Made by a program: the position numbers and the translations under genes. A stretch of DNA of 63,119 bases from a plasmid, in assembly GCF_056746865.1 (NCBI RefSeq), contig NZ_JBWKMP010000006.1; one strand, given 5' to 3'. This document shows positions 7,860 to 58,219 of the stretch, in pieces (the first letter of the stretch is position 1; the number at the start of each line of letters is the position of its first letter). The notes under the pieces are model-generated. The model did no database searches. It was not told the DNA's origin and worked only from the letters and a program-made list of their open reading frames with translations.

Positions 7860-8030
7860 CCTGGCAGGGCTGCGCCCTGCCTCTGCCGTCTGCATAAGAC
7901 TATGATGCACAAAAATAACAGGCTATAATGGCCAAAATCGGGGCAGGATGTGGGAATGTCGGACCGCGCACGCTCGCTCAGACATTCCCCACCTGGTCAG
8001 GGCTGCGCCCCGACACCCCGTAAGGAGCTG
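7860..8030. other. oriT: oriT region (origin of transfer), candidate nic site
   Basis: Directly upstream of nikA; inverted repeat GGCAGGGCTGCGCCCTGCC (7863-7881); 9-bp inverted repeat GGGAATGTC...GACATTCCC (7952-7989); IncP-like ATCCTG motif on the - strand at 7944-7949; second GGTCAGGGCTGCGCCCCGAC copy at 7995-8014. Confidence 0.55.
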
Positions 8031-8032
8031 AA

Positions 8033-8366
8033 GTGAGTGATAGTGCGGAAAAGAAAGAAAAGTGAGGTACGGCAAAAGACAGTTGTCAGGACACTCAGAT
8101 TCTCGGAGGATGAGGATGAAATCATAAGGAAAAAAGCTGAAGATTCCGGACTTACTGTATCTGCTTACATCCGAAATGCAGCACTGAATAAGCGAATTAA
8201 CTCCCGTACAGATGATGCTTTTCTGAAGGAGTTAATGAGACTGGGAAGGATGCAGAAGCATCTGTTTGTTCAGGGAAAAAGAACCGGTGACAAGGAATAC
8301 GCAGAAGTGCTTGTTGCCATAACCGAACTTACAAATACATTGCGTAAACAGTTAATGGAAGGTTGA
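8033..8366 (+). CDS. nikA: NikA relaxosome accessory protein (ribbon-helix-helix); start ambiguous
   Basis: Product ...KKSEVRQKTVVRTLRFSEDEDEIIRKKAEDSGLTVSAYIRNAALNKR... matches NikA as recalled; best Shine-Dalgarno (AAGGAG) serves GTG 8033, but that frame stops after 10 codons and the long frame starts at GTG 8037, implying a 1-nt indel in the GAAAAGAAAGAAAAG run. Confidence 0.8.
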
Positions 8367-8376
8367 GGATTCTCCT

Positions 8377-11078
8377 GTGAATGCAGTCATTCCGAAAAAG
8401 AGAAGGGACGGCAAGTCTTCGTTCGAAGACCTGGTATCCTACGTCTCTGTCCGGGATGACATGACCGATGAGGAACTGAATTTATCTTCTTCTTCGCAGG
8501 CTGAACAACCGCACCGAAGCCGTTTCAGTCGCCTTGTTGATTATGCGACACGCCTTCGAAATGAGTCATTCGTGGCGCTGGTTGATGTCATGAAGGACGG
8601 CTGCGAATGGGTCAACTTTTATGGTGTCACCTGTTTTCATAACTGTACTTCTCTTGAAACTGCTGCTGCAGATATGGAGTACATTGCGGACGGCAGGCAC
8701 ACTATGCAAAAGATGATACTGACCCTGTTTTTCACTACATTCTTTCCTGGCAGTCACATGAAAGCCCGCGTCCGGAACAGATTTATGACAGTGTACGTCA
8801 TACGCTGAAATCACTCGGCCTTGCCGACCATCAGTATGTCTCTGCCGTGCATACTGATACAGATAATCTGCACGTCCATGTGGCTGTTAACCGGGTACAC
8901 CCTGAAACGGGTTATCTGAACCGGTTATCATGGAGTCAGGAAAAACTCAGTCGTGCCTGCCGTGAGCTTGAACTGAAGCATGGTTTTGCTCCGGATAACG
9001 GTTGCTGGGTCCATGCGCCGGGAAATCGTATCGTTCGCAAAACTGCCGTTGAACGTGATCGCCAGAACGCTTGGACACGCGGAAAAAAACAAACTTTTCG
9101 CGAGTATGTTGCGCAGACAGCGGTCGCTGGTTTACGCAGTGAACCTGTACATGACTGGTTATCCCTGCATCGTCGTCTTGCGGAAGATGGTCTGTACCTG
9201 TCTCAGATGGACGGAAAATTTCTGGTGATGGATGGCTGGGATCGCAACAGGGAAGGTGTACAGCTTGACTCGTTTGGTCCCTCCTGGTGTGCAGAAAAAC
9301 TCATGAAAAAAATGGGTGACTACACGCCAGTGCCAAAAGACATTTTCAGCCAGGTGGAAGCACCAGGACGCTATAATCCGGACTTCATTGCAGCTGATGT
9401 TCGCCCGGAAAAAATCGCTGAAACAGAAAGTCTGCAGCAGTATGCCTGTCGTCATCTTGGAGAACGTCTGCCGGAAATGGCACGGGAAGGACGGCTGGAA
9501 AACTGCCAGGCTATTCACCGCACACTGGCTGAAGCGGGATTATGGATGCGTGTTCAGCATGGTCACCTGGTTATCTGTGACGGTTATGATCATAACCAGA
9601 CTCCCGTTCGTGCTGACAGCGTATGGTCACTGCTGACGCTCGACAATGTGAATCAACTCGATGGTGGCTGGCAGCCTGTACCAACAGATATTTTCCGCCA
9701 GGTTACGCCAACAGAACGCTTCCGTGGTCGTCGTATGGAGAGCTGTCCTGCGACCGATAAAGAATGGCACCGTATGCGTACAGGTACGGGGCCGCAGGGG
9801 GCTATCAAACGCGAACTGTTTTCTGACAAAGAAAGTCTGTGGGGATACAGCATCAGCCATTGTAGCCCTCAGATTGAAGAAATGATCACACAGGGTGAGT
9901 TTACCTGGCAGCGTTGTCATGAGTTGTTTGCACAACAGGGACTGATGCTACAGAAACAACATCACGGGCTTGTTGTCGTTGATGCCTTTAATCATGAGCA
10001 AACGCCGGTGAAGGCCAGCAGCATTCATCCTGATCTGACACTGGGGCGTGCGGAGCCACAGGCCGGACCTTTTGTGAGTGCTCCAGCAGATTTGTTTGAC
10101 AGGGTGCAACCTGAAAATCGCTATAACCCGGAGCTGGCTGTCAGTGACAGGTACGGGGTCAGCAGTAAACGTGACCCAATGCTGCGCCGGCAGCGACGTG
10201 AAGCCAGGGCTGAGGCCCGTGCTGACCTGCGTGCCCGCTATCTGGCATGGCGTGAACAATGGCGTAAACCGGATCTGCGTTATGGGGAACGTTGTCGGGA
10301 AATTCATCAGGCATGCCGTCTGCGGAAGTCACACATTCGTGCGCAGTACGATGATCCGGCATTACGTAAGCTGCATTATCACATTGCAGAAGTTCAGCGA
10401 ATGCAGGCATTGATCAGGCTGAAAGAAGACATCAGGGATGAGCGACAGAAACTTATTGCTGACGGGAAGTGGTATCCACCCTCTTACCGTCAGTGGGTCG
10501 AAATTCAGGCTGCTCAGGGAGACAGGGCTGCTGTATCGCAGTTGAGAGGCTGGGATTATCGCGATCGCCGTAAAGACAAGTCACGCACAACGACGACAGA
10601 CCGCTGTGTCGTGCTTTGTGAACCGGGCGGAACGCCGGTATACGGTAATACCGGTGATCTCGAGGCCCGTCTGCAGAAGAACGGGAGTGTTCGTTTCCGT
10701 GACCGTCGGACGGGAGAGTTTGTCTGTACGGATTATGGTGACAGGGTTGTTTTCCGTAATCACCATGACCGCAATGCGCTGGCAGATAAACTGGATTTGA
10801 TTGCACCGGTATTATTCGGGCGTGATCCACGCATGGGGTTTGAACCAGAAGGAAACGACAAACAATTTAACCAGGTCTTTGCTGAAATGGTTGCCTGGCA
10901 TAATGTGACAGGCCGTACCGGTCACGAAGACTACAGGATTACGCGACCGGACGTGGATCATCACCGTGAAGGAAGTGAACGCTACTACCGCGATTATATC
11001 GCGGCGAACAGCAACGATGACGCATCACTGCCTCCGCCGGAGCAGGATAAACGCTGGGAACCGCCTTCTCCAGGTTAA
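8377..11078 (+). pseudogene. nikB: NikB relaxase (MOBP), frameshifted in this sequence around 8698-8708
   Basis: N-terminal 143-aa ORF (8377-8808) and 743-aa ORF (8847-11078) join if one nucleotide is restored; the second frame upstream reads ...DPVFHYILSWQSHESPRPEQIYDSVRHTLKSLGLADHQYVSAVHTDTDNLHVHVAVNRVHPETGY (His-rich relaxase motif); combined ~900 aa. Confidence 0.85.
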
Positions 11079-18831: not shown

Positions 18832-21008
18832 TCATTCCGAAGGAGTATGTCGGATATTGCGACTTCCTCCAATAAATATTTCTTTAACAGAATTTGCCAT
18901 GCTGCCAAGAGTGTTGGCTCCATCACGTCCCCCAAGGAAATTAATAACATGATCAGGTAGGTAGGCCTGAAGGGCAAATATGGCAGCTACAGAGGTTGTA
19001 CAAATTCTGGCGTATATCAGCAAGAAACCAGCAAGACTGAAAATACCGGTCAGCGAATTGAACTGTACGTTAACCAGGGCAGCGCCAAATAATGCATTCA
19101 GTATTGTGCCTACGGCGATGATGGCGACAGAAGCAAAGAAAAAACCAAAGACCATGAGGGCGGCCTTATCATACTATCAATTAAGTATATATAACCGTAG
19201 GCTGCCCGACTTCCTCTGTCTTCTGATGTTCCGAGATGTGTTGCAGCCCACAGAGGCCCGGCGGTACATCCTATTAATACGCTGACTATCCAGTTCCCGA
19301 TGCCTGTCATCCAGAAAATAAACGGAATAAATGGCAGGTAAATTGATAAGGAAAATCCAGCACAGAACATCAGGAACAGCAAGAAATAAACAGGTGGTGC
19401 AAGTGCTTCAAACAGCGCGGTAAGCATCGAAGCGGCACCTGTTAGTGAGTTAAAGAATTTTACAAGAATTGAGTTTTGCCACTGGCAACGACAACTCTGA
19501 CCGTTGTATATAGTCCAGATTCCTTCTGCACTTACCATTGTTATATCTCCGATATTTTTCATTTTTATCAGATGGATTAATTTGATCGCTGGTTGTTCCT
19601 GTGCCACTTGTTTCTGTTGCAATCCTGTTAGTGAGACTAACAAGGGGGCCCATAATTTCAGACAAGGCAGATTTAGGATCTTGTGCATTTGCCATTCGTT
19701 GTTCAGTTGGATGATAGTACTGTGCCCAGCGGTGGCGTATAGGAGGAATTCTGCAGTTGCGTCCTGGTAGGCACTCATGACCGCACTGAATAAGTCAGTA
19801 TCACCAACTTCTCCCAGTGATGACATTGAAGTTACAGCTGGAGCTCTGTCAGCCAGCTCTGCCAGACGCTGGTTAGCAGTGGCAAAGGTCTGATACCATG
19901 CGCCAAGCGTTACCCACCCGTAGGTTGTGAGATAAGATTTAAGAGCCTCTTTTCTGGATTGCTCTCCGTTATCAGTGGGTAGCGATTTTTGCACAGCACG
20001 TTCATATTCGTCGGCTGCTTTCTGAATCCGTGTCTCGATATCCGGCAATGTTCCGTTGCCAGAATTTCTTTTTTCCAGAAATGTTGTCACAAACTCACTG
20101 GCAGCGTTGTCCATGTCGCTAATCATATTATCCATGGCTGCACGTTGTGCTGAGATAACACCGCTGTATTCGTTTTTACTGAAGGGATTAAAGAATTTTC
20201 CAATCGTCGATTGATCTGTTGTTCCGTTTCCTTCTACTGACAGGCTGGCTGAACCACAGATACCGCTGCCATTGGATACCGTGACAGTGTAATTACCACT
20301 GGCGGTTTTAGCTGATTCTGTCATCAGTGAAGTCGAGGATTTGGCCGTCTGATTAAAATCATTTAGTCCTGCGTTAACCGCATACTTACACAGTTCCATT
20401 TCAAAAATGCCACGCGCTGCTGTTCGTGTGGATGCCTGAACTGGCTGTACAGTCATTGAATAACCATTTGCGATATTATCAGCGGCAAGTTGCACCATCA
20501 CATTGGCGGACCCAACCCCCATTATCGATGCGCCCCATAACATAATGAGCTGAGCGATACTCCAGCCATTTCCGGTTGGAACGATCATCAGAAAACCTGC
20601 AACGACACTCAGTGTGCCGACGATATCGCGTCCGGTGCTGAATACCTGTCCCTGATGCCCCGAACGCACAACATGACGGATACCAATGAACATAAACCAG
20701 ACAACGGCAAGTACGGCGATGATACTGTTGAACGCCCCGAACATGCTTCCGATCAGAGTGGGGGCGCTGGTTGACAGTGGATTGGTGACTACATCACCGA
20801 ATATCGTGACCAGCGCCTGGCGAGACAGATCGTCAGGATTGGTTGCGGCAGACACAATATCCTGATAGGTCACTGAAGCCATTGCCGGCAGTGAGGATAT
20901 AGCAAGGCCTGCACAGAGTGCGCGAAGTAAAATTTTCACAGTAACTCCGGAATAGAATTGCGTATGGGCAAAGGCCACACAGGATTTAATTAAGGGGGAT
21001 GGCGACAT
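18832..21008 (-). pseudogene. traY: TraY (DotA-like polytopic membrane protein), frameshifted near the A6 run at 19139-19144
   Basis: 632-aa ORF (19110-21008) and 107-aa ORF (18832-19155) overlap in different frames; adding one T/A in the homopolymer joins them (...IRPPSWSLVFFFASVAIIAVG...). Confidence 0.8.
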
Positions 21009-32627: not shown

Positions 32628-35600
32628 TCATCGGCCGGGGCTGTGGGAGAGATCCTGATGCAGAGTTTTTTCCTGCCTGTCCTCCGGCTTTTGGCTGTTG
32701 GACCACTGCTGCCATGACTGCTCGAAGCCCAGGTTCCGGTACAACGCATCAGGTTGTTTTTCCGGCGTGTAGACAGCAGCAAAAAGCGGTTCTTCCCGGG
32801 TTTTCAGATGAAACTGCATAAGCTCCGGTGCGGGGCGATTCGTGCTGTCAGCATCGTGGTTTACCGCTTCACCATAACCTGCAAAGCGTAAACCTTTGTC
32901 GGTCAGCGCATTGATAACCAGCTGACTGTTGTCGGCTGATGGGGTGGCCAGTGCCGGATACAATGTGCCGTTCAGCCGGACCACACCCTGCAGATGTTCA
33001 TCGGCACTCTGGACAAGTAGCAGGTTGAGTTCACGCGTATCCTTATCCACTGATCCCAGAACAGGTGTCAGCTTGTCAGGGGCTGCGCTGGTTATTTCTG
33101 TTACCTGATTTGCGTTCTGTGGCGCGGAGACCGGATGTCGGTCTTCACCGATAAACAGATGTGAGCCGACGTTTTCTGGCATACGTAACGCTTTCATCTC
33201 TTCGGGCCACCCCTGGCTGATTTGCGCAGCCACTTTCATAAAGGTTTCGACCGGAATCGCCTGAATACGCTGACCTTTATCCGGATTATCATGTGATACC
33301 GAGATCCCGTTGGTAACTGACTCCATGGACCACTTATTCCGGAAACGTGCTTTTTGCTCTCCCGGGAGGATGAATTGTTCGCGGTTCTGAAGTGTCAGTG
33401 TCACCACGTCACCTTTCTGATGGTTTTTGACCAGACTTTCCAGTTGTTCCCCCCAGTAGAGTTTGCTGCCACTGCGGTTTTTAAGCTCAACAAAGAAACT
33501 CTCTCCTTTGCCGGGTGCATATTCAGCACGACCAAAATTGTGCAGTACGGCAGTCACGCTCTCTCCCGGGCGAAGTTTTCCTGGTGGTTCTTCACCTTGT
33601 GCCGCATCTGCCGTTTTGCCAGGTTCAGCCGGTGATGATGCAGGGACGGTGCTGACGGTTGATGCTTCAGGGGCAACTGGGGACGCCGGGGATTGTGTGG
33701 CTTCTTTTTCCTGAACGGGGTCAGGGACAGCCGGTTGTTCAGGGGTATTCCGGTTAAGTTCCGGTGTTGGCTGATGGGTGACAACAGCATCCTTACCGAC
33801 AGCCATTTCCTTGCGTAATTTTTCGAGCTCCAGACGCTGATCAGGCAATTTCATGCGCACATTGATGTTGTGCTCGATAATCAACTGCATCGCTTTTTGC
33901 TTAAAGGCATCACTGCCCGTCAGCTCAATGACGCCACCATAAAAATTAGTGGCCACAGCAAGTGCGGCCAGAACACTGCGATCGTCATTGCTGGCACCGT
34001 TGACCATTTCCAGCCGGTTTACCCGGTCAATGAAGGCAGGTTTGCCATCCAGTTTGTACAGGACGGTTCTGTCTGCTCGTTTTTCCCCTTCAGTGATTTA
34101 ATGATTTCGTCCAGATTGAGCGATATCGGTGCATCAGGACGTTCCGGGGCGTAGACAATACTGTCAGGTGTCGGTGTGGTCGTCGTGGTTTCCGGTGAGG
34201 GCGTGGGATCACTGTTCTCATGTGCCTGTGAATCCGTTTTTTTACGCGTAAAAAAGCCACGCGCTTTGTCGAGAAACGATGAAGTATTATCAGAAGGTGA
34301 TGTGCTCTGAACAGGTTGCTGTGGATTGGGTTCATCCCGGACAGCCGGTTCTGCAGTATCTGTTGTGGCCTGAAGTTCTGACTCATCTGCCTGAACGTGG
34401 TCTGTGTCCGGTTGCGACGGCATATCACTGTTTTCCTGCAGATGCTCAGGATTTTCATTGTTCATCAGCTCCTGATATGCGCTGTAGTTTTCGTATTCTT
34501 CGGGGCCATCTGACTCAGGAAGGAACGGCTCTGGCTGAAGGGGAATGTCTTCAGTTACATGGCTGACCGCCTCTTCCCGGGGAGTATCCGGGGATATTCC
34601 GGTGCTTTGTTTGTCATCAGGCTCCGTCATCACGGTCATTTCCTCTTTGACTGCATCAGGGGAAGGTGATGGCTCGGCTGATTCATTCATGGTTTCAGAT
34701 GAGGGACTGTCTTCAGGGGATGCGGGGGCGGCAGCAGGGGCCGGTATTTCAGGTGAAGTGCCGGATTCCTGTTGTGACTCGTTTTTTTCCGGTTGTGACA
34801 GTTCGGCTTCAAATTCACGCCAGTCTTTATCTGTGGCCACCGAGACAACTTTTTCCGGAGGTTCCGCCGGATGAGCGGGTTCATCAGGGGCAGATGCCGT
34901 TGTACTTTCCGGGGACGCCGGTGATTCTGCAGGGGAGTCCTGAACTACAGAGCTTTCCGTTTGCGCCTGAACGTTATCAGCGTGCCGCTCATCTTTGCCG
35001 TTATTTTCAGTGGCGTGACTGGTAAATGACTGTGTTTCATCAGCAATGTTACTGCTGGAAGCAGCTGGTTGTTCCTGCTGCGTGGCGGACGGCAGAGAAG
35101 GTCCCTGGTCATGGCTGTGCCCTGTATCGGGTGATGTTTCAGGATATTCTGTCGGAGTCATGGTTTTTTCCTCAGTGTGGACCGGTGTAAAAACGAGGTT
35201 GCCGATCACCAGTGCCTCGCGGATTTCCGGGGTGTTACTGTTGGGGGTGGAAACCCCGATGTGTTCTAACTGGGCGTTGATGACATGCTGAAAAGCGGCC
35301 CGTCCCCGGCTTGCGTCCAGGTCATTGAAATCGGTCAGCCCCTGCGCTTTTTCGGCATCGGTGAACGCAGGAAAGATGACCGTTCCTCCTGTCAGTTCTG
35401 CGGCTTTTGTTGCACTGACGATACCTTTGTTAACCCGGATTGCATGATCGTTGTCGGCACAGAAGATAAAGGGGCTTTGCGTCCACTTTTGCCGGGCATT
35501 TTCGGCAACGGCAATCATGTTGCCTCCATCCACCGTCATCAGTACCGGAAGGCCCGTGGCTTCGTGCAGGGAGGCCGCAGTGGCATAGCCCTCGGCAAAC

Positions 35601-36394
35601 AGTACCGGCTGACCGTTGCGCGGTGTGCCCAGCGCAAACCAGTTACCGGTTTTCTCTGAATCTTTCAGGATGCGGGCATCCTTCCCCCCGGTGACCGGAA
35701 TACGCTGGTAAGAGCGTATCGCGCCGTTACGGTTACTGAAGGGAATAACCAGTTCATTTTTGTTGTTTACCCGCACCCCCGGTGCAGCCTGAATGCCTTT
35801 CCGGGTCAGGTATTCATGTGCTGTGGCCTGCGGCCATTTGTTGACATAGCGGCGGGCATACGCGGCCTGTCGGTTGTACTGTGCTTTCAGTTCCCGCTCC
35901 GCGTCCTCCCTGCGTTGCATTGAATGCGCTTTCAGGTGGAGTCTTGCGCGGGGATCTGTCTGTTCTCCGCCGGAGAAGGTCCAGGTGATCGGCGAATCAT
36001 CCGCGCTGCGATAATCCCTGTACCAGCCGGCAGGTCTGCCGTCCAGGAATCCGCGATATGCGCCACTTTTTTGTCCTTTTTTGTCATCGGCGGTCGGGAC
36101 ACGGTGGATTTTCCCGTCCATGACCGGCAGTTCTTTCAGAACCAGTCCGGCATTCTCCAGAACCTGGGCAAACTCGGTGACCGGATCACTGCCGTTCATG
36201 GAGACGTCCTGTGGCCGGGGCAGCCAGCGGTCCAGCCTGGACAGGTCCGCCCCCGGGCGGGCGAACCAGAGTTTGTGCTCCTTGTCCCAGATGACGGGCG
36301 TGTGCCCGTTCATCGGGGGATGTGCTTTTTTGAGATCTTCTATTTCATCTGCAGGCACGGCAAGCCAGGTGCGGTAGCGGGATACAGACGGCAT
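32628..36394 (-). pseudogene. sogL: Sog DNA primase (SogL/SogS), frameshifted between 34022 and 34098
   Basis: N-terminal primase part (ORF ending 34019, start ATG 36394 with AGGAGA) and 459-aa C-terminal ORF (32628-34007) are in different frames; a G4A5 run at 34081-34089 is the likely indel site; Asp/Glu/Pro-rich linker is typical of Sog. Confidence 0.85.
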
Positions 36395-57109: not shown

Positions 57110-57364
57110 TCATGATAGCCAGTCCTGTAGATGCTGATGGCGGGAGCTGCTGCCCTTGTGCCAGCGGCAGTGGCTGCCGGGAGCACGCTCCAGTCGGAAC
57201 AGAAATCGGTTGTCGCGTAGTACCACCACGAGACAGTTATCCGGCGTGCAGAAACGTCGGGCAAGCTCATCGGGGTCTGTCGGTGTTTTCGTTGAAAACA
57301 GCCTGCGTTTGCAGTGTGCGTCGACGACCAGTATTTGCAGTCGTCCGGGATGTTGCTGTGGCAT
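57110..57364 (-). CDS. small protein, candidate PilI
   Basis: 84-aa ORF from ATG 57364 with strong AAGGAG Shine-Dalgarno at 6-nt spacing; overlapping ORFs on other frames rejected. Confidence 0.4.
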   Translation of the reverse strand: MPQQHPGRLQILVVDAHCKRRLFSTKTPTDPDELARRFCTPDNCLVVVLRDNRFLFRLERAPGSHCRWHKGSSSRHQHLQDWLS

Positions 57365-57535
57365 CAAAGACTCCTTCCGGAACGGGAAAAGAAGCAGCTG
57401 TACCGTCATAACTGCACGTACCGGTTGCGAAAAAACGGCACAAGCGAGTAGTGACAGAAAGAATGTCGGAAACGGCAGGAAGGGCGGTACAGGCTGCGAA
57501 GACTGGAAACGGGGTATGCCGGGGATTACACATCC

Positions 57536-58219
57536 TCAGTGTAATGTGATAGTCGTCTGCTCCTGTGTTGCACCCCAGACATCTTCTGGCAAGCTGGGCA
57601 GCCCGATAAATAGGGTGTGAAAGAGGGTTTCTCTGCGTTCGATCCCGAATTGATGTTCGTATCCTCTCACCACCTGAAATCCTTCGTCGGAGAATATTAA
57701 CTCTGCCGTTTCCAGAAGCTGCATAGTTTTGCGGTGTAGTGGAGTGATCAGCTGCAACGTAACTGGTGCCCTCATATCGCCTGTCGGTAGAAAACACTCT
57801 TCGGTGCGACTTAGTTGTAGCAGATGGCGTTTCCCGGAACAGGCCCGTTCAATGGATTCATTGAACACCCTCTCAGGCCATGGGCAGACATAAGTGCGCC
57901 AGCCTGCTTTCTGTAATTTACCCAGCGCAGCCCGAAAACGAAACAACGGACATTCCCCGACAGTGGCAGAGCTGAGAAAGAGCGTATTCAGCGTTCCGAT
58001 GATGGGAATATTGCGATCTTTTTCGGTCAATGCTTTTAACGCCATGATTTCGCCAGGGAGACTACTGAACTCAGGATGTCTGCTGGCACCAGAAAGCCAT
58101 TCAAGCAGGTAATGCCGTAATCCGGTTTCACTGGTTATATTGTGGTTTTCCTGTGCCGTTTTCAGGGCATTCAGTGCACACCAGAGCAACTGGCGCACGG
58201 GATGTTCTGTCGTGGTCAT
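57536..58219 (-). CDS. traC: TraC-position regulatory protein
   Basis: 227-aa ORF immediately downstream of traB; symbol by synteny. Confidence 0.6.
   Translation of the reverse strand: MTTTEHPVRQLLWCALNALKTAQENHNITSETGLRHYLLEWLSGASRHPEFSSLPGEIMALKALTEKDRNIPIIGTLNTLFLSSATVGECPLFRFRAALGKLQKAGWRTYVCPWPERVFNESIERACSGKRHLLQLSRTEECFLPTGDMRAPVTLQLITPLHRKTMQLLETAELIFSDEGFQVVRGYEHQFGIERRETLFHTLFIGLPSLPEDVWGATQEQTTITLH

Follow-up and report, generated by a model that had tools for sequence, protein, structure and literature searches.

The sog gene in the analysed stretch of plasmid DNA (63,119 nt, called the window throughout) is split by a one-nucleotide frameshift, which we attribute, with moderate confidence, to the private, non-programmed loss of a single T in the codon for Gly770, most likely introduced by base-calling or assembly. 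If this is correct, the real plasmid would encode a normal SogL (1255 aa, with DUF5710, Toprim and LPD7 domains) and a normal SogS (844 aa, starting at Met412).

The window covers the leading region together with the transfer and pilus region of a conjugative plasmid of the IncI1 type. With increasing coordinates, the order is psiB-psiA, ardA, oriT-nikA-nikB, trbCBA, excA, traY to traE, rci with the shufflon, pilV to pilI, traCBA and repA. At 57364-57539 traD is absent between traC and pilI, unlike in R64 and pWI2, and the same was seen in the Shigella sonnei contigs L007-L012; a tblastn search of the window with the traD query of pWI2 gave only a weak match of 30%. The sog gene is flanked by nuc, which is a phospholipase D family gene, and by traL. 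The tblastn analysis with the pWI2 proteins placed nuc at 37035-36487, sog at 36394-32631 and traL at 32610-32266, and the annotated IncI1 relatives have the nuc-sog-traL order as well. Over its full length sog is 99.4% identical to annotated 3768-nt genes of IncI1 plasmids, which are listed as 'DNA primase / LPD7 domain-containing protein'. The following features of the locus are relevant for the reading frames:

32628..36394, minus strand: complete sog locus, interrupted by the 1-nt deletion (3767 nt in the window versus 3768 nt in the intact gene)
34019..36394, minus strand: upstream ORF of 791 codons (770 native and 21 out-of-frame residues), followed by TAA (ORF listing, translation)
32628..34007, minus strand: downstream ORF of 459 aa plus stop, from ATG 34007, the native Met797 (ORF listing)
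34022..34097, minus strand: stretch in which the upstream frame and the native -1 frame are both open (three-frame translation)
between 34086 and 34085, minus strand: deletion point, a T of the coding strand (A on the plus strand) is missing (pairwise and multiple alignments, probe searches)
34080..34088, minus strand: GGGGAAAAA run, product of the deletion (relatives have GGGTGAAAAA)

A single sog frame of 1255 codons is absent in the window, and codon 770 is the last one before the break. The upstream ORF can start at ATG 36394 or at GTG 36430, it ends at TAA 34021-34019, and the C-terminal end of its product reads IIKSLKGKNEQTEPSCTNWMANLPSLTG. The native continuation, beginning with EKRADRTVLYKLDGKPAFIDRVNRLEMVNGASN, is read in the -1 frame up to the normal stop at 32630-32628. 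ORF listing, three-frame translation and alignment agree with the preliminary description of this DNA, which had located a frameshift in sog at this place and had assigned the primase part and the 459-aa C-terminal part to different frames; the 459-aa ORF is indeed in the -1 frame. It had further proposed that both frames are open only across 34022-34098. The overlap is the sole one of its kind, but it extends from 34097 to 34022, bounded by TAA 34100-34098 in the -1 frame and by the TAA of the upstream ORF in the 0 frame.

The alignment with the SogL of ColIb-P9, which had been suggested as a check, showed that the lesion is the lack of a single T in the codon for Gly770, which is GGT in the relatives. 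At the deletion site the relatives have CTGAAGGGTGAAAAACG, while the window has CTGAAGGGGAAAAACG. Written in codons, CTG AAG GGT GAA AAA CGA of the relatives is replaced by CTGAAGGGGAAAAACGA, and thus the third base of the Gly770 codon is gone. The alignment with the intact 3768-nt genes of pFORC44_1, pWI2-incI1, ColIb-P9 and R64 revealed one length difference, i.e., GGGTG versus GGGG, and when the T was put back in silico, a 1255-aa ORF with a lone terminal stop was obtained. The frameshift had been described as lying near a G4A5 run at 34081-34089. The nonamer GGGGAAAAA is present on the coding strand, one base away from that position, at 34088-34080, and it is close to the frameshift, but it did not exist beforehand, because the deletion itself generated it from GGGTGAAAAA. 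Thus, the run does not go back to an older homopolymer or slippery tract, and it is no evidence for slippage or recoding. The frequency of the nonamer in the window is unremarkable, it occurs 3 times versus 0.69 times expected, and 3 occurrences were reached in 5 of 100 shuffles.

The sog allele is a fine mosaic, in which the base at nearly every variable site is of the ColIb type or of the pWI2 type. At most of the variable sites, including those downstream of the shift, the variable base is the third of a codon in the native frame, and the downstream part therefore evolved as a coding region read in this frame. At 33800-34120 the SNPs are densely clustered, and this patch has at most 97.0% identity to any PLSDB record. 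The alternation of ColIb-type and pWI2-type bases in this patch points to a fine-scale recombinant allele. In-register recombination of pWI2-type and R64-type alleles was also considered as the origin of the GGGGAAAAA run and was rejected, as both parental types have equal lengths at the site.

Two proteins are encoded by sog, SogL (1255 aa) and SogS (844 aa), of which the latter begins at an internal start in the same frame, and both are transported to the recipient (PMC6112013). The following features of the two proteins were found in the window:

36218..36373, minus strand: DUF5710 at the N-terminus of Sog, residues 8-59 (Pfam PF18974, i-E 2.3e-8)
35300..35599, minus strand: Toprim/primase core (Toprim_3), residues 266-365 (Pfam PF13362, i-E 1.7e-4)
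35159..35161, minus strand: in-frame ATG of Met412, the expected start of SogS (1255-844+1 = 412, and residue 412 is Met)
33828..34070, minus strand: LPD7 domain in the C-terminal part of Sog (Pfam PF18821, i-E 8.7e-13)

The EGYATA primase motif is located at residue 268 (35593-35576). The sequence GAGGA is present 7 nt upstream of the ATG of Met412, and this combination fits a putative start of SogS. The LPD7 match comprises residues 10-90 of the -1-frame translation from 34097 and model positions 11-85 of 92, and it begins about 5 codons (15 nt) past the frameshift. In the window the LPD7-containing C-terminal part is not joined to the primase, as LPD7 is in the -1 frame. Taken literally, the sequence would encode a 791-aa SogL' with an intact primase, which would be devoid of LPD7 and the C-terminal part, and in addition a SogS' of about 380 aa. 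A 459-aa fragment from Met797 could be added if ribosomes reinitiated 11 nt past the stop, and in this product roughly the first 20 residues of the match to LPD7 would be missing (10-30 of 10-90).

Such a reinitiation at ATG 34007 might represent a functional split into two genes, one for a 459-aa C-terminal Sog and one for a free 791-aa primase. The stop codon TAA 34021-34019 and the ATG are on one mRNA, their spacing suits termination-reinitiation, and reinitiation within sog has been described as the origin of SogS itself (PMC6112013). However, ATG 34007 lies inside LPD7, so that part of the domain match is lost, and it is not preceded by a good Shine-Dalgarno sequence (CCGGCTGGAA ATG). In addition, the split was not seen in any other plasmid examined, and the exact 459-aa and 791-aa products were not found in a collection of 15 billion proteins. 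A functional two-gene split is thus regarded as very improbable.

The occurrence of the deletion in public sequences was analyzed with a 46-nt probe across the site (34054-34099), which had matches in 1330 PLSDB plasmid records and in 718 E. coli RefSeq records. The best-ranked matches from both collections were all 47-nt alignments with one gap, in which the T was kept; a copy with the same deletion and a nearby SNP would rank lower and lie outside these best-ranked matches. A full-length exact match to the probe with the deletion was not found in PLSDB and E. coli RefSeq. Similarly, a 501-nt query yielded 502-nt matches throughout the matches listed. Further copies from 10 genome assemblies and 14 metagenomes were read directly, and all 24 carry the extra base. 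An IUPAC motif of the deleted form had 0 matches in the genome and metagenome contig collections, in contrast to the motif of the intact form, which had 14 metagenome matches.

The search was extended to the protein level. In the collection of 15 billion proteins exact matches were found neither for the fragments of 791 aa, 803 aa and 459 aa nor for the repaired Sog of 1255 aa, and the exact TrbA and ExcA of the window were also without a match in the protein collection. The results for NikA and PilV are not counted here, as the start of NikA and the C-terminus of PilV, which depends on the shufflon, are uncertain. An identical Nuc is encoded on a very large number of contigs, each of which has an intact sog of 1254/1255 aa that belongs to other alleles. 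The Shigella sonnei contigs with the exact PilO have about 96.5-98.9% identity to the window and end at the shufflon. The best PLSDB match to the window has 99.7% identity over 24 kb, and ColIb-P9 is 95.3% identical to the window in the nikA-nikB region. The plasmid is neither ColIb-P9 nor R64 nor R621a, which are separate PLSDB records, and it is not pRK1 of E. coli W either, as rci and the shufflon are absent from pRK1 and rci is present in the window. Among the copies compared, the sog deletion is thus private to this record. For most of the window, changes were called private on the basis of a panel of 3-9 references, and only at the sog site on the basis of more than 2000 records.

As a mechanism that would restore full-length Sog from the two frames, a programmed -1 ribosomal frameshift or transcriptional slippage at G GGG AAA AAC was considered. 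The shift required from the upstream to the downstream frame is -1, perfect re-pairing of tRNA-Gly on GGG would be possible after such a slip, and the 76-nt overlap gives room for the shift. However, the zero-frame codons are AAG GGG AAA AAC and do not form a canonical X XXY YYZ heptamer, as G GGG AAA violates the YYZ rule and G AAA AAC violates the X rule. The 90 nt downstream of the site have a minimum free energy of -26.7 kcal/mol versus a shuffle mean of -24.1 (z = -0.82), and 45 of 200 shuffles were as good. Transcriptional-slippage sites consist of a homopolymeric A or T run of typically 8 or more, and the A5 tract is far shorter than the known tracts. Moreover, the two-frame arrangement was found in no homologue examined, neither among the best-ranked matches nor among the 24 assembly and metagenome copies, which are all single-frame, and the deletion itself made the run. 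The probability of programmed recoding is therefore regarded as almost negligible.

A further variant is that the deletion is real and useful Sog is nevertheless still made, either via low-level -1 slippage on G GGG AAA A or via reinitiation at ATG 34007. The slippage route would give near-native SogL and SogS, while the reinitiation route would give the free primase and a separate C-terminal fragment. There is only a slim chance that this is the case, but if it were true, the production of Sog from a broken gene would be a natural experiment that parts the priming module from the transported module.

The preferred reading, i.e., a base-calling or assembly error, was evaluated by inspecting the other genes of the window. 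A tblastn analysis of 66 pWI2 proteins versus the window was performed, and the clear full-length matches were assessed for their frame. All of them are single-frame with the exception of six, i.e., sog, traY, nikB, nikA (N-terminus), pilQ and pilK. The indels were compared with a panel of pWI2, ColIb-P9, R64, pSCU-484-1, pSJC33-3 and S. sonnei contigs. Each of the following indels is private to the window, and the references agree with one another:

8688-8689, plus strand: nikB, +GG, relaxase frame broken at about residue 105
about 8049: nikA, +A, GGTAAG changed to GGAAAAG just past the usual GTG start
after 19157, minus strand: traY, -T
19474-19767, minus strand: traY, five more indels of 1-2 nt, about 90 residues scrambled, DNA about 95% identical
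about 51228: pilQ, T4 to T5, frameshift, S. sonnei, ColIb-P9 and other copies otherwise locally identical
about 56751: pilK, T5 to T4, frameshift, S. sonnei, ColIb-P9 and other copies otherwise locally identical

The first example is nikB, which is the relaxase gene. At the site of its insertion the window has TTGCGGACGGCAGG, while all references have TTGC--CCGGCAGG or TTGC--ACAGCAGG. The next example, nikA, could be rescued by an in-frame GTG at 8037, and the predicted protein would have a different N-terminus (MIVRKRKK...). In the start region of nikA (window about 8028-8052) a -1 change in the spacer between the Shine-Dalgarno sequence and the start was also observed. Upstream of nikA, in the oriT region at 7933-7992, the inverted repeat differs from that of ColIb-P9, R64 and pWI2 in both arms together, it is GGGAATGTC...GACATTCCC in the window versus GCAATTGTAAT... 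in the references, and the CATCCTG core of the nick region is kept. The best PLSDB identity for the window region 7900-8800 is only 95.4%. The oriT of the window may be a distinct oriT/NikA specificity variant. The third example is traY, a DotA/TraY-family gene, which is split by six indels of -1, -1, -2, +1, +1 and +1, at a place where ColIb-P9, R64 and pSCU-484-1 are mutually identical. This pattern looks like low-quality sequence.

In addition, intergenic single-base deletions compared to pWI2 were detected at 2343, 3501, 4097, 6061 and 16571. They mostly affect short homopolymers (C5 to C4, GG to G, T8 to T7, C4 to C3), and the deletions at 2343, 3501 and 4097 are also private with respect to the wider panel. 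The private indels are inferred to be errors rather than mutations.

The private substitutions have different characteristics. In genes, 51 private SNPs are synonymous and 23 are non-synonymous. Downstream of its own frameshift, nikB has 8 synonymous private SNPs and 1 non-synonymous one, and in the tra block at 20000-44300 all five private SNPs are synonymous. Nonsense mutations, IS insertions and larger deletions were absent in the 55 other genes, and the private SNPs did not have a signature of relaxed selection, i.e., an excess of non-synonymous or nonsense changes. The private substitutions thus look like selected variation, not like decay. The excess of private frame-breaking indels together with the missing signal of relaxed selection suggests either problems with the sequence quality or extremely recent events. 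The same applies to the break in sog, which is artefactual or very recent because other private indels are present and the private substitutions are mostly synonymous.

The second possibility, a genuine and very recent inactivating mutation that turned sog into a pseudogene, is a serious alternative, although it is held to be less probable than an error. SogL would then be truncated to 791 aa and SogS to about 380 aa, and the delivery of primase to recipients would be lost. This could belong to a wider loss of conjugation, as nikB, traY, pilQ and pilK are broken, too. The lesion is present in the sequence as given, and it is the sole indel in an otherwise clean stretch of 24 kb (20000-44300). 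The parental sequence is GGGTG, so that the length of a homopolymer is not changed, and the loss does not have the classic form of a 454 or nanopore error. Furthermore, the deletion of sog in R64 lowers the transfer only from 10^-2 to 10^-3 (PMC6112013), and with this about 10-fold cost the gene is dispensable enough for a natural loss. If the break of nikB at about aa 105 is real, mobilisation by the plasmid's own relaxase is impossible, and selection would then no longer keep the other transfer genes from decaying.

The private SNPs argue against this alternative, because with ratios of 51:23 in genes and 5:0 in the tra block they do not have the signature of relaxed selection, and the 55 other genes are free of nonsense mutations, IS insertions and larger deletions. 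Six nearly compensating indels within about 610 bp of traY are hard to explain naturally in the absence of accompanying private substitutions. Moreover, the deletion in sog was seen in no other public copy examined. An error in the record is thus still preferred, and the call of the preliminary description for resequencing was right and is reinforced by the other private frame-breaking indels in the window.

The frequency of frameshifted sog genes in public records was determined as well. In a spread sample of full-length sog copies from PLSDB, the net length of 4 of 43 (about 9%) was not divisible by 3, and these four had no CDS (CP083890, CP042631, CP148857 and CP121424). The affected gene is the same as in the window, but the indels are elsewhere (A7 to A6, several A-runs, near CCAGG/CCTGG), and none of the four copies has the deletion of the window, as the base is kept at that site. 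The indels in A-runs and adjacent to CCAGG/CCTGG presumably resemble long-read errors, and the frameshifted fraction of about 9% is likely to be a long-read error signature in public plasmid records. This base rate of 4 in 43 points toward an error also for the window.

Frameshifted sog copies have thus already been present in public records, and the split does not represent a new type of element. As sog is a long-studied, semi-dispensable conjugation gene, the biological weight of a private 1-nt frameshift in it is small, whether this is an error or a trivial knockout. The results are of use for annotation and quality control, because sog, nikB, traY, pilQ and pilK, i.e., at least five transfer genes, contain frame-breaking indels, and a further one is located near the start of nikA. 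Inferring the transfer ability from this record or counting its pseudogenes should await verification at the level of the reads.

The split sog was also compared with known systems. The -1 frameshift sites of dnaX and of IS elements are similar to the site in the window with respect to the -1 direction and the G/A-rich tract. In contrast to them, neither an X XXY YYZ heptamer nor a stimulatory structure is present at the site in the window, the site is not conserved, and its homologues are all in frame. With the exception of the continuous frame, the gene in the window agrees in all tested respects with the sog genes of ColIb-P9 (NC_002122) and R64 (NC_005014). These genes are also located between nuc and traL, they have 96-99.4% nucleotide identity to the gene in the window, and the proteins share DUF5710, Toprim with EGYATA, Met412 and the C-terminal LPD7 domain. 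The difference is the missing T of the Gly770 codon, which splits the 1255-aa frame of these plasmids into the ORFs of 791 aa and 459 aa found in the window.
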